Shown here: positions 346 through 2,564 of the stretch, in pieces | How the letters are laid out: the number at the start of each line of letters is the position of its first letter | Position numbering within the stretch: position 1 is the first letter of the stretch | Source of the DNA: a virus | Taxonomy: Duplodnaviria > Caudoviricetes | IMG/VR virus record: IMGVR_UViG_3300030090_003700 | Location: 494-64,493 of that record | Strand: one strand, 5' to 3' | DNA length: 64,000 nucleotides | Position numbers and translations under genes: made by a program | The notes under the pieces: model-generated | What the model was told of the DNA's origin: nothing | The model's input: only the letters and a program-made list of their open reading frames with translations | Database searches by the model: none

Positions 346-2564
346 TGTATAAGCAAACATTGTATAGCATTATAGAGCCTATAAAAATTAATACAATCAA
401 ACGGCTTAATAAAGCAAAAAAATGGAAATACGGCTATAATAAAGAACATGATGTTATTGTTATAAGCAAGACAGGAATGATTGGTGAAATATATGAAATA
501 CAAAATCTTAGAATAGCTTTACCAAAACAACCAAAGCAAGTATTCAAGGGTAATGATAAATGGGAGGCCCAAGAGTACCCAAAAGAATTACAAAAAATAA
601 AAACTATATTTGACTGGAGAGAGCTGCCAGCAGATTTTAAAAACAGATGGCATGCGTATATCGATAATGAATTCACTAAAAGAGAAGAGGGTTTTTGGTT
701 TTATAACAAAGGCGTTCCTACTTACATTAGTGGCACTCATTACATGTACTTGCAGTGGACTAAGATTGACGTCGGGAAGCCAGAGTTTAGAGAGGCAAAT
801 AGATTATTCTTTATTTTCTGGGAAGCTTGTAAGGCAGATCCACGATCCTATGGGATGTGTTACCTTAAGAACAGGCGTTCCGGGTTTTCTTTCATGGCAT
901 CAGGAGAGACTGTTAACTTGGCAACCATATCAAGTGACAGTAGGTATGGTATATTATCCAAGTCCGGTGCTGATGCAAAGAAGATGTTCACAGATAAGGT
1001 GGTACCCATATCAGTTAATTATCCATTCTTTTTCAAGCCCATCCAGGACGGGATGGACCGTCCAAAGACCGAGCTTGCCTACCGTGTCCCAGCCAGTAAG
1101 TTTACCAGAAGAAAACTTACCACCAACGAAGCCGTTGAGGATATACAAGGACTTGACACGACCATCGATTGGAAGAACACCGGTGATAACTCCTACGACG
1201 GTGAGAAGCTCGCCCTCCTCGTACATGACGAAGCCGGTAAATGGGAGAGGCCAGAGAACATTCTCAACAACTGGAGGGTTACGAAAACCACGTTAAGATT
1301 AGGTAGTAGGGTTATAGGAAAATGTATGATGGGTTCAACAAGTAACTCAGCAGATAAAGGAGGAGAAAACTTTAAAAAATTATACCATGATTCAGACGTT
1401 ACCAAAAGAAACCGCAACGGACAGACTCGTAGCGGATTATATAGTTTGTTCATTCCTATGGAATGGAATTACGAAGGATTCATTGATTCTTATGGATTAC
1501 CTGTATTCGACACCCCAGATGCGATCGTTCAAGACCCTTACGGAGATGAAATTACAACAGGAGTTATTGAGCATTGGGAAAACGAAGTTGAAGGCTTAAA
1601 GCAAGATCAAGATGCTTTAAATGAATTTTATAGACAGTTTCCAAGAACAGAAGAACATGCGTTTAGAGACGAAACAAAAAATAGTATATTTAATTTAGCA
1701 AAAATTTACGAACAAATTGATTACAATGATGAAGTCGCAAATCTGTCGCAAGTTACCGTTGGCAGCTTTACGTGGCAAAATGGAATTAAAGACACAAAAG
1801 TCCAGTTTACGCCAAATCCTAACGGAAGGTTTAAAATCAGCTGGGTTCCGGGTGTAAGACTACAAAATAATGTTATAACTAAAAATGGCATTAAATATCC
1901 TGGCAATGAACATATGGGTGCTTTTGGATGTGACAGTTATGATATATCTGGAACAACTGATGGCCAAGGATCAAAAGGTTCTTTACATGGATTAACTAAA
2001 TTTAGTATGGAAGAGGCTCCAGCAAATCATTTCTTTTTAGAATATATTGCAAGACCTCAAACTGCTGAAATGTTTTTTGAAGATGTGTTAATGGCTTTAG
2101 TATTTTATGGAATGCCATTGTTAGCAGAAAACAATAAACCTAGATTATTATATTATTTAAAAAGAAGAGGCTATAGAGGATATTCAATGAATAGACCCGA
2201 TAAAGCTAGAAACAAATTATCAGTTACAGAAAAAGAAATAGGCGGCATACCTAATTCAAGCGAAGATATAAGACAAGCTCACGCTGCTGCAATTGAAACA
2301 TATATCAATGACTATGTTGGTATTATTAATGATGGGGAATACGGAACATTATATTTTAATAGAACATTAAACGATTGGGCAAAGTTTGATATAAACAAAA
2401 GAACAAAGTTTGATGCAGCTATAAGTTCAGGTCTAGCAATAATGGCTTGTAATAAAAATAAATACCGTCCATCAGCAGAAAGAATAAAACAAAAAGTTAA
2501 TATTACTTTAAGTAAATACGAAAATAAAGGAACTATATCAAAAATTATAAAAAATTATGGCTGA
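345..2564 (+). CDS. terL: Terminase large subunit
   Basis: Walker A-like LKNRRSGFS, Walker B LLVHDEAGKW, coupling motif MGST, nuclease-domain motifs FGCDSYD and KFDAAISSG. Confidence 0.93.
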   Translation: MYKQTLYSIIEPIKINTIKRLNKAKKWKYGYNKEHDVIVISKTGMIGEIYEIQNLRIALPKQPKQVFKGNDKWEAQEYPKELQKIKTIFDWRELPADFKNRWHAYIDNEFTKREEGFWFYNKGVPTYISGTHYMYLQWTKIDVGKPEFREANRLFFIFWEACKADPRSYGMCYLKNRRSGFSFMASGETVNLATISSDSRYGILSKSGADAKKMFTDKVVPISVNYPFFFKPIQDGMDRPKTELAYRVPASKFTRRKLTTNEAVEDIQGLDTTIDWKNTGDNSYDGEKLALLVHDEAGKWERPENILNNWRVTKTTLRLGSRVIGKCMMGSTSNSADKGGENFKKLYHDSDVTKRNRNGQTRSGLYSLFIPMEWNYEGFIDSYGLPVFDTPDAIVQDPYGDEITTGVIEHWENEVEGLKQDQDALNEFYRQFPRTEEHAFRDETKNSIFNLAKIYEQIDYNDEVANLSQVTVGSFTWQNGIKDTKVQFTPNPNGRFKISWVPGVRLQNNVITKNGIKYPGNEHMGAFGCDSYDISGTTDGQGSKGSLHGLTKFSMEEAPANHFFLEYIARPQTAEMFFEDVLMALVFYGMPLLAENNKPRLLYYLKRRGYRGYSMNRPDKARNKLSVTEKEIGGIPNSSEDIRQAHAAAIETYINDYVGIINDGEYGTLYFNRTLNDWAKFDINKRTKFDAAISSGLAIMACNKNKYRPSAERIKQKVNITLSKYENKGTISKIIKNYG
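667..1296 (+). CDS. Candidate overprinted lipoprotein in the +1 frame of terL
   Basis: Stop-free +1 frame 610-1296; MNSLKEKRVFGFITKAFLLTLVALITC resembles a lipoprotein signal peptide; local GC visibly raised. Confidence 0.4.
   Translation: MNSLKEKRVFGFITKAFLLTLVALITCTCSGLRLTSGSQSLERQIDYSLFSGKLVRQIHDPMGCVTLRTGVPGFLSWHQERLLTWQPYQVTVGMVYYPSPVLMQRRCSQIRWYPYQLIIHSFSSPSRTGWTVQRPSLPTVSQPVSLPEENLPPTKPLRIYKDLTRPSIGRTPVITPTTVRSSPSSYMTKPVNGRGQRTFSTTGGLRKPR

Follow-up and report, generated by a model that had tools for sequence, protein, structure and literature searches.

Since the gene coding for the terminase large subunit (terL) in the window, which is the whole analysed stretch of 64,000 nucleotides, carries a long open frame out of register with its own, we asked whether this nested frame may be a gene in its own right and whether its product could be an outer-membrane lipoprotein for lysis or exclusion, as the original prediction had it. 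The features concerned are as follows.

345..2564, + strand: terL, terminase large subunit, 739 amino acids (ORF list and phrog_6681 match), host gene of the overlap
610..1296, + strand: +1-frame ORF from its first TTG, 228 codons and a stop, the preceding +1 stop lying near 597
667..1293, + strand: coding sequence proposed for the overprinted gene, starting at ATG 667 (209 amino acids, pI 10.7, net charge +19)
667..759, + strand: predicted N-terminal targeting segment, a basic n-region and a hydrophobic helix ending C-T-C-S-G
760..1293, + strand: hydrophilic, basic, S/T/P/G/R-rich body and tail without a predicted fold
1294..1296, + strand: TAA stop of the putative +1 gene, formed by the terL codons ACG-TTA-AGA
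700..1296, + strand: GC3-rich patch of terL, whose third positions are the second codon positions of the +1 gene

The nested frame and its predicted product

The terL product matched phrog_6681 (terminase large subunit, E=6.3e-165) and 87 GenBank phage records, the best being MW202828 with 62% amino acid identity; the Flavobacterium 'elemo' phages had 44%. It carries at 1215-1232 the motif LLVHDE, which we take to be Walker-B-like. The ORF at 610..1296 is in the +1 frame of terL, positions 610 and 345 differing by 1 modulo 3, and the claim that it is a stop-free stretch of 228 codons and the longest nested ORF was borne out: among the window ORFs of at least 90 amino acids the next nested ones have 167 and 153.

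The 209-residue product deduced from ATG 667 starts MNSLKEKRVFGFITKAFLLTLVALITCTCSG and shows an n-region (MNSLKEKR..K), an h-region (AFLLTLVALIT) and Cys at residues 27 and 29. After residue 31 there are 178 amino acids with a net charge of +16, an S+T+P+G+R fraction of 0.50 and 20 Pro (11%), and the basic, R/P/S/T-rich composition described earlier was confirmed. AF2 predicted a helix at residues 3-31 with pLDDT 53-67 and no confident fold elsewhere, pLDDT being below 50 over residues 31-102, 109-152 and 157-209. Neither Pfam nor PHROGs held a family for the product, and 98 database proteins of similar length that match the +1 profile strongly are without Pfam domain and unnamed or 'hypothetical'. 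In the ESM Atlas only unnamed clusters were matched, with a recognition score of 1484 (91 of 100 known families reach 2300); this low score is uninformative.

Of 47 ORF-bearing relatives 45 have a +1 ATG within 646-690, as have 26 of 34 non-bearers, a mild enrichment, and in many relatives it directly follows a +1 stop at 651 or about 660. The position of the final +1 stop (1293) is shared by 17 of 23 long forms, while it lies two codons further in five and earlier, at 1263, in one. The stops before the ATG bear on programmed +1 ribosomal frameshifting from terL, by which an N-terminal fragment of TerL would be fused to a disordered tail. Such a product would suit the window, where no +1 stop intervenes between about 600 and ATG 667, but most bearers have the stop at 651 or 660 right before the ATG, and features resembling a signal peptide are sensible only at a free N-terminus. 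We consider frameshifting extremely improbable.

No conserved internal promoter was found. The Bacteroidota-type -7 motif TAnnTTTG lies at 605, and it was seen at this place in long forms (8 of 24), mid forms (13 of 37) and non-bearers (23 of 54) but in none of the 32 sequences of the sister lineage; it was rejected as a promoter for the ORF since its presence is unlinked to it.

Selection on the +1 frame

GC content in windows of 150 nucleotides was 0.44-0.51 at 751-1350 while the flanks showed about 0.23-0.31, and the bin 601-1200, with 0.432, is the joint highest among the 106 bins of 600 nucleotides in the window. The rise occurs, as had been noticed, at terL synonymous sites: GC at terL third positions (GC3) climbs from about 0.2 to 0.42-0.62 between about 645 and about 1290, while it is 0.10-0.42 in the remainder of the gene. 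As high GC3 alone lowers the density of +1 stops, the patch might be a compositional or recombinational accident, or a signal at the DNA or RNA level, with the open frame as a by-product of GC3 and no product of any consequence.

Synonymous codons of 663-1290 were shuffled with the terL protein and the local GC3-rich codon use kept. None of 1000 shuffles of the window was stop-free in +1 (mean 4.6 stops), and the codon-permutation test proposed for ORF length indicated that the ORF exceeds chance. Only the +1 frame was spared: the observed stops and shuffle means were 25 and 19.8 for +2, and 17 and 16.0, and 9 and 9.0, for the two antisense frames able to vary.

Relatives were fetched from IMG/VR by terL similarity (160 of more than 600), and the relative set comprised 81 terL sequences, the window and 80 relatives; set B (L084-L163), which had been retrieved by means of the +1 product, the pattern MVTGSCAT among others, and is hence biased, served for variants and alignments only and entered no frequencies. 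In the relative set 22 of the 81 terL sequences had no stop in about 210 +1 codons where shuffles give 3.6-6.4 (P<=0.003 each), the number of stop-free sequences expected by chance being below 0.3 of 81; sequences rich in +1 stops sat near the shuffle means, some of them significantly below. The sister lineage contained 13 of 32 sequences without +1 stops against 4.0-8.1 stops expected. Mid forms hold 146-169 +1 codons open at a GC3 of 0.27-0.32. The first +1 stop after position 700 was bimodally distributed among the 81 sequences, with 34 at 700-799, none at 800-999 and 47 at 1014 or beyond, so that the openness anticipated for homologues was found in 47 of them, open past 1000, while the other 34 have the scattered +1 stops that would speak against it. 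Ten disjoint pairs of bearers accumulated 550 synonymous codon differences and no stop against about 35 expected, given that about 6.4% of the possible synonymous changes create a stop and assuming a uniform spectrum of synonymous changes; three of the ten pairs were not sisters. Taken over the aligned sequences, these comparisons showed that in a large part of the clade selection keeps the +1 frame free of stops.

GC3 fell at each sequence's own +1 stop: all 43 long forms dropped from 0.60 to 0.27 and 41 of 48 mid forms from 0.38 to 0.29, while the 56 non-bearers stayed flat at 0.26-0.28.

Selection was unevenly distributed along the ORF. Between bearer pairs the terL-synonymous differences at 699-792 were 0.194 against 0.294 outside (p=3e-6), while non-bearers showed 0.318 and 0.305, respectively. 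The reduced synonymous variation predicted for homologues was present at this N-terminal stretch only, since over the whole ORF the differences were 0.43 against 0.40 in all pairs and 0.312 against 0.294 in sister pairs. The ORF body, in which every terL-synonymous site is non-synonymous in +1, gave 0.348 in bearer pairs against 0.294 elsewhere; because these sites change as fast or faster, the residue sequence is not conserved apart from the N-terminus. A body without residue conservation is unusual for a functional protein.

The predicted hydrophobic core following the basic n-region was upheld by resampling as well. The maximum hydropathy over 11 residues was 2.9, against 1.5 under synonymous resampling, with z values of 2.26 for long forms, 2.25 for mid forms and 0.2 for non-bearers, and the frequency of A at terL third positions of 708-752 was 0.03 in long forms while it was 0.28 in non-bearers. 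As judged from these substitution patterns, the N-terminal hydrophobic segment was shown to be under purifying selection in bearers only, and the remainder to be selected for composition, namely G/C at the second codon positions of the +1 frame, and not for residue order. Such a choice of bases would produce a sequence rich in S/T/P/G/R, non-hydrophobic and free of stops.

The original prediction had named a recombinant tract from a higher-GC relative as a possible source of the patch. The patch of the window is indeed mosaic, its nucleotide identity to relative L041 being 0.867 inside and 0.758 outside, where L001 is closest with 0.843. The donor type is not GC-rich, its GC3 outside the patch being 0.18, and the genomes sharing the tract have a GC3 of 0.15-0.30 outside it. 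Bearers are equally diverged inside and outside the region, so that no single tract has swept through them recently. The mosaic structure and the absence of residue conservation in the body would fit an accident or a DNA-level signal, but shuffles preserving GC3 still yield four to six stops, the GC3-poor mid forms keep their frames open, the GC3 drop follows each sequence's own stop, and the selection on hydropathy of the h-region is without a DNA-level explanation. That no product matters is therefore highly improbable.

A second dip of synonymous diversity was observed at about 1395-1480 in long forms. It was rejected as a conserved +1 ORF, each sequence having at least one stop in 1387-1599.

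The N-terminal signal and the lysis region

Lipoprotein signals were scored by a PROSITE-style rule (PS51257-style) with K/R within the first seven residues and A/G/S at position -1 to the Cys. The window has the general layout, with K/R in the n-region and an uncharged h-region ending 15-35 residues from the start, and contains L-I-T-C and C-T-C, in which the residue at -1 to either Cys is T; relatives have I or L there, since a Y/F codon of terL dictates the residue. The rule was passed by none of the 115 sequences of the window's lineage, lineages being binned by a two-residue terL motif that assigns L169 to this lineage while the tree places it in the sister clade. In relatives with Phe a TTC codon would give Ser at -1 synonymously, yet they use TTT, which gives Leu. 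In the sister lineage, on the contrary, 19 of 32 sequences have a canonical lipoprotein signal in the homologous ORF, for example MNTLIKSLIFVLMVTGSC, while the chance of a complete SPII-type signal under synonymous resampling is about 0.003 per sequence. For the Phe codon that sets Ser at -1, 20 of these 32 sequences use TTC, while only 169 of the 840 Phe codons at other places in these genes are TTC.

The Cys and part of the hydrophobicity are not independent evidence, because conserved terL motifs (YMYLQW; W-F-M-C) force them. The motif LCTCSG was likewise rejected as evidence of conservation, YMYLQW forcing it even in non-bearers. The lipoprotein claim consequently divides by lineage: on the predicted signals it holds for the family and not for the window's member, whose N-terminus is read as a putative signal-anchor or SPase-I signal and not as a canonical lipobox.

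The lysis genes of the window lie elsewhere.

27054-29728: endolysin together with candidate spanin and holin genes
28174-28512: candidate gene for a spanin-like lipoprotein, MKAILVLFAAVTVGC..., which has a hydrophobic stretch in its C-terminal part; the endolysin gene follows directly
28680-29141: M15 endolysin

The statement that no spanin is obvious in the lysis region is doubtful, since this spanin-like lipoprotein gene adjoins the endolysin gene. The +1 ORF is about 27 kb away from these genes and is embedded in terL, not in an i-spanin gene. A canonical outer-membrane lipoprotein in the window, serving as an o-spanin like Rz1 or in exclusion and processed by signal peptidase II at either Cys, would agree with the n-region, the h-region and Cys 27, with the far above chance frequency of the lipobox in the sister lineage, with the Pro content of the mature part and with an embedding in +1 that resembles Rz1. 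The T at -1, the unused access to Ser, the distance to the lysis genes and the separate lipoprotein beside the endolysin stand against it, and known o-spanins are far shorter and less basic than the mature part. We regard a canonical lipoprotein in the window as unlikely.

The frame might also be translated with selection acting on the act of translation or tolerating a harmless by-product, such as a non-toxic peptide from unavoidable internal initiation. Composition-only evolution with free residue turnover, frequent truncation or loss of the ORF and the missing fold in the prediction are compatible with this. If harmlessness were all that mattered, however, an early stop would achieve it at the least cost, yet the frame avoids stops over 150-210 codons; the N-terminal hydrophobicity is tuned upwards, the opposite of detoxifying, and the sister lineage assembles a full lipoprotein signal from synonymous choices. 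A mere by-product is very unlikely in our judgement.

Distribution, possible role and known systems

The bearers belong to a clade of uncultured marine Flavobacteriia-type podophages, part of which carries the ORF, and its range is narrower than that of terL. The outgroups MW202828 and elemoA (62% and 44% terL identity) lack it, with 10 and 15 +1 stops, respectively, and no GC3 rise. A tblastn search of 50,697 GenBank phage records with the +1 product returned one weak match, MW202828, broken by stops; no cultured carrier of the ORF is known. In a terL tree constructed without the overlap region one clade of 33 rows carried the ORF throughout and the other clade in many of its deep branches, and the ORF state changed 11 times, the trees being FastTree only and the order of gain and loss resting on two outgroups. 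As reconstructed on this tree, the ORF appears to have been lost repeatedly. It is absent from the window's nearest terL relative, L001, and altogether from 34 of the 81 close relatives, and is therefore dispensable.

Region 667-1296 is probably a real overprinted +1 gene, for which an action at the envelope is the most likely one. Translation would start by initiation at an internal AUG of the late terL mRNA; initiation in Bacteroidota does not require a Shine-Dalgarno site. In the window's lineage the N-terminus may then act as a signal anchor or SPase-I signal, in the sister lineage as a lipoprotein signal. Either way it would insert the product in the inner membrane or carry it through, and a disordered polycationic chain of about 180 residues would thereby be placed at the envelope. 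Because Sec does not readily export a domain with a net charge of +16, the predicted topology is uncertain. The most speculative step is that the product might act as a dispensable accessory factor, for example in destabilising the outer membrane at lysis or in blocking superinfection, and if so its dispensability would explain the frequent truncation and loss. We hold the account as a whole, a selected overprinted +1 gene with an internal AUG that encodes an envelope-directed, disordered cationic chain with a dispensable accessory role, to be likely.

A more detailed history is possible and clearly more tentative. The locus may be an old accessory gene, born by overprinting in the ATPase half of terL and selected almost purely for composition and length, whose export signal, constrained by the terL frame, was rebuilt in two places, in one lineage as a canonical lipoprotein signal and in the other as a signal anchor further downstream. 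It would move between terL backbones by homologous recombination, be lost repeatedly and serve marine Flavobacteriia phages as a dispensable factor that disrupts the outer membrane or blocks superinfection.

In phage lambda the o-spanin Rz1 is embedded in the +1 frame of Rz. Both nested genes lie wholly, out of frame and on the same strand, within a phage late gene, and both products have an N-terminal signal sequence and are unstructured, here by prediction, and to some degree Pro-rich; the sister lineage also shares the canonical lipoprotein signal. Unlike in lambda, the host gene is terL and not an i-spanin gene, the endolysin is some 27 kb distant, the mature part has about 180 strongly basic residues, the window's lineage fails the lipobox rule, and the searches returned no named family similar in sequence. 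The lysis protein E of PhiX174, embedded in gene D, is another overprinted +1 gene, and its N-terminal transmembrane helix, in which the functional information is concentrated, and its basic, sequence-tolerant C-terminal part match the constraint pattern of the terL +1 ORF. PhiX174 is a small ssDNA phage without endolysin, while the ORF occurs in a 64-kb dsDNA phage that has holin- and spanin-like genes besides an M15 endolysin. Disruptins are cationic phage peptides acting on the outer membrane, and Llp of T5 and Cor are exclusion lipoproteins. The proposed product would resemble them as an exported, envelope-acting phage factor and disruptins in being cationic as well, but they are short or folded and encoded by free-standing genes, while it is nested in terL and no homology was found.

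Overprinted viral accessory proteins of de novo origin have been reviewed (PMC8227390), and they share with the +1 ORF the alternative frame of an older gene, a restricted range, compositional bias and predicted disorder. Most documented cases are from small RNA or ssDNA viruses, unlike the present one, in which a tailed dsDNA phage has the overlap in its hallmark gene terL and the signature is a local GC3 island with borders following the ORF. Full-text searches of openly accessible papers brought up no report of a gene embedded in terL.

As terL is the hallmark gene for finding, classifying and dating tailed phages, a second gene in its most conserved half would place a hidden constraint on codon-based analyses such as GC3, synonymous rates and recombination scans. 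A GC3 island whose edges match an alternative-frame ORF may serve as a simple and transferable detector of hidden genes in AT-rich phage genomes. More than 100 natural variants in three states, long, truncated and absent, make the locus a rich natural experiment, which bears on the overwriting of an old protein with a new one, on the assembly of a signal peptide from synonymous choices and on selection at the level of composition. Gene callers already trip over the overlap: the unnamed entries of public protein sets include, besides the +1 product itself, chimeras that switch frame between terL and +1.

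Phage, host gene and the open +1 frame

The source IMG/VR virus record comprises 64,493 bases, is estimated to be complete and contributes its bases 494-64493 to the window, whose overall GC is 0.33. Its first large gene codes for the terminase large subunit and is followed by a portal gene:

345-2564 (+): terL, terminase large subunit (phrog_6681, E=6.3e-165)
2557-4980: P22-like portal gene

Tblastn of terL matched 87 records overall; the closest named relative was the uncultured podovirus MW202828 (62% amino acid identity), followed by Flavobacterium 'elemo', Cellulophaga, Tenacibaculum and Maribacter phages at ~44% and below. 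Judged from these nearest named relatives, the window phage is a marine Flavobacteriia-type podophage.

The ORF listing confirmed the +1 ORF inside terL (610-1296, 228 codons, ATG at 667) and that, within the window, it is the longest of all ORFs nested in another gene. When synonymous codons were permuted within 663-1290, preserving the terL protein and local codon use, none of 1000 window shuffles was stop-free (mean 4.6 stops), and stop counts in the +2 and antisense frames were at or above expectation. Since shuffles retaining local codon use were never stop-free and the other frames were not spared, the open frame is not a mere by-product of GC3, the third-position GC of terL.

Eighty terL relatives (75-90% amino acid identity) were selected from IMG/VR by terL similarity and codon-aligned. 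Together with the window, 22 of the 81 sequences carried zero +1 stops over ~210 codons (shuffle P<=0.003 each, under a null only roughly calibrated, many-stop sequences lying near the shuffle means and some significantly below them), and about two dozen further relatives were open from ~663 to 1101-1218, some at a GC3 of only 0.27-0.32. The first +1 stop past 700 was distributed bimodally, with 34 sequences at 700-799 (non-bearers), none at 800-999 and 47 at 1014 or beyond (bearers). Outside the region, stop densities of bearers and non-bearers were alike, at 9.3 vs 9.6 upstream and 31.5 vs 31.4 downstream. As a control for shared ancestry, ten disjoint pairs of long forms (bearers open to ~1293) were compared, three pairs not being sisters; across the region they showed 550 synonymous codon differences and 0 of ~35 expected +1 stops, an expectation that takes ~6.4% of possible synonymous changes as stop-generating and assumes a uniform mutation spectrum. 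On comparative grounds, a hidden +1 gene inside terL is strongly supported.

The rise in GC at terL synonymous sites was evident: GC3 increased from 0.15-0.33 to 0.42-0.62 over ~645 to ~1290 and fell to 0.30-0.40 directly past 1296. Since terL position 3 is +1 codon position 2, G or C at the wobble site gives Ser, Pro, Thr, Ala, Arg or Gly and fewer +1 stops. Mean GC3 of the long forms was 0.60 in the 40 codons before their own +1 stop vs 0.27 in the 40 after (43/43), while mid forms, which stop at 1014-1218, showed 0.38 before vs 0.29 after (41/48). At the mid-form stop coordinates the long forms still had 0.56-0.62, and GC3 of non-bearers was flat (0.26-0.28, n=56). The third-position composition profile agreed with this tracking of ORF ends. 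The placing of the borders at each sequence's own stop indicates that the patch is the result of coding in the +1 frame. A recombinant tract from a GC-richer relative, the alternative named in the original prediction, was rejected: genomes sharing the patch have a GC3 of only 0.15-0.30 outside it.

Elsewhere in the window, an ORF-poor stretch of ~0.7 kb (43050-43740; ORFs of 40-63 aa only) has a GC of 0.40-0.43, equal to that of the terL patch. The stretch adjoins a tRNA gene, the sole Rfam match here:

42956-43031 (-): tRNA-Met

Constraint on the +1 product and the lipoprotein question

Reduced synonymous variation had been predicted for the ORF and was found in bearers at 699-792 only, not over most of its length. 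Among all bearer pairs, terL-synonymous divergence was 0.43 over the ORF and 0.40 beyond it; bearer sister pairs had 0.312 vs 0.294, and non-bearers 0.292 vs 0.305. The sliding profile revealed a single local dip within the ORF (705-795), in bearers only. Over 699-792, which codes for the hydrophobic segment of the +1 product, divergence of bearer sister pairs was 0.194 vs 0.294 outside (p=3e-6) and that of non-bearer pairs 0.318 vs 0.305, while the ORF body of bearers (795-1100) was slightly above background at 0.348.

With synonymous codons redrawn from each gene's own usage as the null, the best 11-residue hydropathy of bearers was 2.9 vs 1.5 (z=2.26 and 2.25), being significant singly (P<=0.05) in 70-79% of them, and that of non-bearers 1.6 vs 1.5 (z=0.2). 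Wobble A, which at terL codons gives polar residues or stops in the +1 frame, had a frequency under this segment of 0.03 in long forms vs 0.28 in non-bearers. Downstream, the product of bearers is hydrophilic (S+T+P+G+R 0.37-0.59) and the equivalent frame of non-bearers is hydrophobic noise (0.17-0.24). The window product has a pI of 10.7 and a net charge of +19; its AlphaFold2 model (47-sequence alignment) had a mean pLDDT of 40.9, with only the N-terminal helix (residues 3-31) exceeding 50, and a representative of the sister lineage described below gave 38.2.

The proposed lipoprotein identity was evaluated with a PROSITE-style lipobox rule. The Cys residues following the helix are dictated by the terL motif YMYLQW even in non-bearers, and their conservation was therefore dropped as evidence. 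A terL Tyr codon limits the residue ahead of the first Cys to T or I, and a Phe codon limits it to L or S; it is T in the window, and relatives with Phe carry TTT (Leu), not TTC (Ser). None of 115 sequences of the window lineage satisfied the rule.

Database matches led to a sister terL lineage, which is 64-70% identical to the window's in amino acids and carries the terL motif GYWFMCNG; 32 of its sequences were picked by terL similarity. All 32 were open in the +1 frame to at least 999, and 13 had zero +1 stops vs 4.0-8.1 expected. The ORF starts ~15 codons further upstream (example N-terminus MNTLIKSLIFVLMVTGSC), and 19/32 satisfied the full rule vs ~0.003 under synonymous resampling. The Phe codon that sets Ser or Leu at -1 was TTC in 20/32, against a 20% TTC share of Phe codons elsewhere in these terL genes. 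The rule passes and the TTC bias argue that the ORF family includes genuine lipoprotein-type precursors. The lipoprotein label is supported for the sister lineage and unsupported for the window, in whose lineage the hydrophobic segment has been rebuilt downstream, without a canonical lipobox end, and presumably serves as either a signal anchor or an SPase-I signal.

Expression, lysis genes and putative function

An ATG occupied the expected site in 45/47 bearers vs 26/34 non-bearers, in most bearers immediately after a +1 stop, which favours internal initiation over frameshifting. The promoter-like motif TAnnTTTG at 605 showed no association with ORF presence; translation from the late terL mRNA is thus assumed. 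The lysis genes lie away from terL:

27054-27341 (+): one-TM protein of 95 aa whose C-terminus is charged and coiled-coil-like
28174-28512 (+): lipoprotein-like 112-aa ORF with a canonical-looking signal MKAILVLFAAVTVGC (phrog_29588, function unknown)
28680-29141: M15 endolysin
29510-29728 (+): 72-aa two-TM protein

The original prediction saw no obvious spanin here. In the 28174-28512 product, encoded just upstream of the endolysin, lysines come after a hydrophobic stretch at the C-terminal end; this product is a unimolecular-spanin-like candidate. The spanin slot of the window phage is probably already occupied. The 27054-27341 and 29510-29728 proteins, which flank the endolysin region, are possible i-spanin/holin candidates. 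The likeness of the +1 ORF to Rz1 in Rz is one of nesting. In PhiX174 E the information lies in the N-terminal membrane helix and the basic tail is sequence-tolerant, and the +1 product is similar in both respects. Our best guess is that the +1 product may be a dispensable, envelope-acting late protein.

Three further proteins are encoded nearby:

25554-25829 (+): very basic 91-aa DUF5872 protein (PF19197, E=2.1e-15)
25864-27054 (+): 396-aa protein with a cleavable-looking signal peptide and no family match
27343-27741 (+): 132-aa thioredoxin-like protein (PF00085, E=2.4e-6) with a cleavable-looking signal peptide

Distribution and history

The +1 product matched no Pfam or PHROG family, and tblastn against GenBank phages revealed no cultured phage bearing the ORF. 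The 98 database proteins matching its profile are named nothing beyond 'hypothetical', and several are chimeras between the terL and +1 frames; the predicted proteins P0034, P0040, P0044, P0058, P0059, P0060 and P0062 switch part-way along, which suggests that frameshift-tolerant gene callers or sequencing indels pulled them into the +1 frame. Full-text searches over the main texts of openly accessible papers turned up no account of a terL-embedded gene; a conference summary mentions mycobacteriophage overprinting for tail genes only.

The terL tree, constructed by FastTree only with the overlap region left out, was rooted with the outgroup phages elemoA (15 +1 stops) and MW202828 (10 +1 stops), neither of which shows a GC3 rise. 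The ingroup fell into two clades. All 33 rows of the sister clade bear the ORF. In the window's clade, with 114 rows, many deep branches have it, and clades of 37, 7 and 6 rows as well as scattered singles lack it. This distribution requires 11 state changes and is most simply read as a single origin before the two clades separated, with repeated loss or replacement afterwards.

Outside 700-1290 the window terL is sister to its closest relative there, the ORF-less L001 (0.843 nucleotide identity); within that region its nearest match is L041 (0.867, and up to 0.96 at 795-885). This mosaic indicates that homologous exchange within terL carries the ORF among backbones. Whole-terL phylogenies blend two histories. 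Since bearers as a group are equally diverged inside and outside the region, the exchange does not represent a recent sweep.

Past the +1 stop, at 1395-1480, long forms alone are low in terL-synonymous diversity (0.16-0.24, with 0.31-0.45 in all other groups). This stretch contains no conserved +1 ORF, every sequence having at least one stop in 1387-1599; the dip could reflect homogenisation by recombination or a signal acting at the RNA or DNA level.
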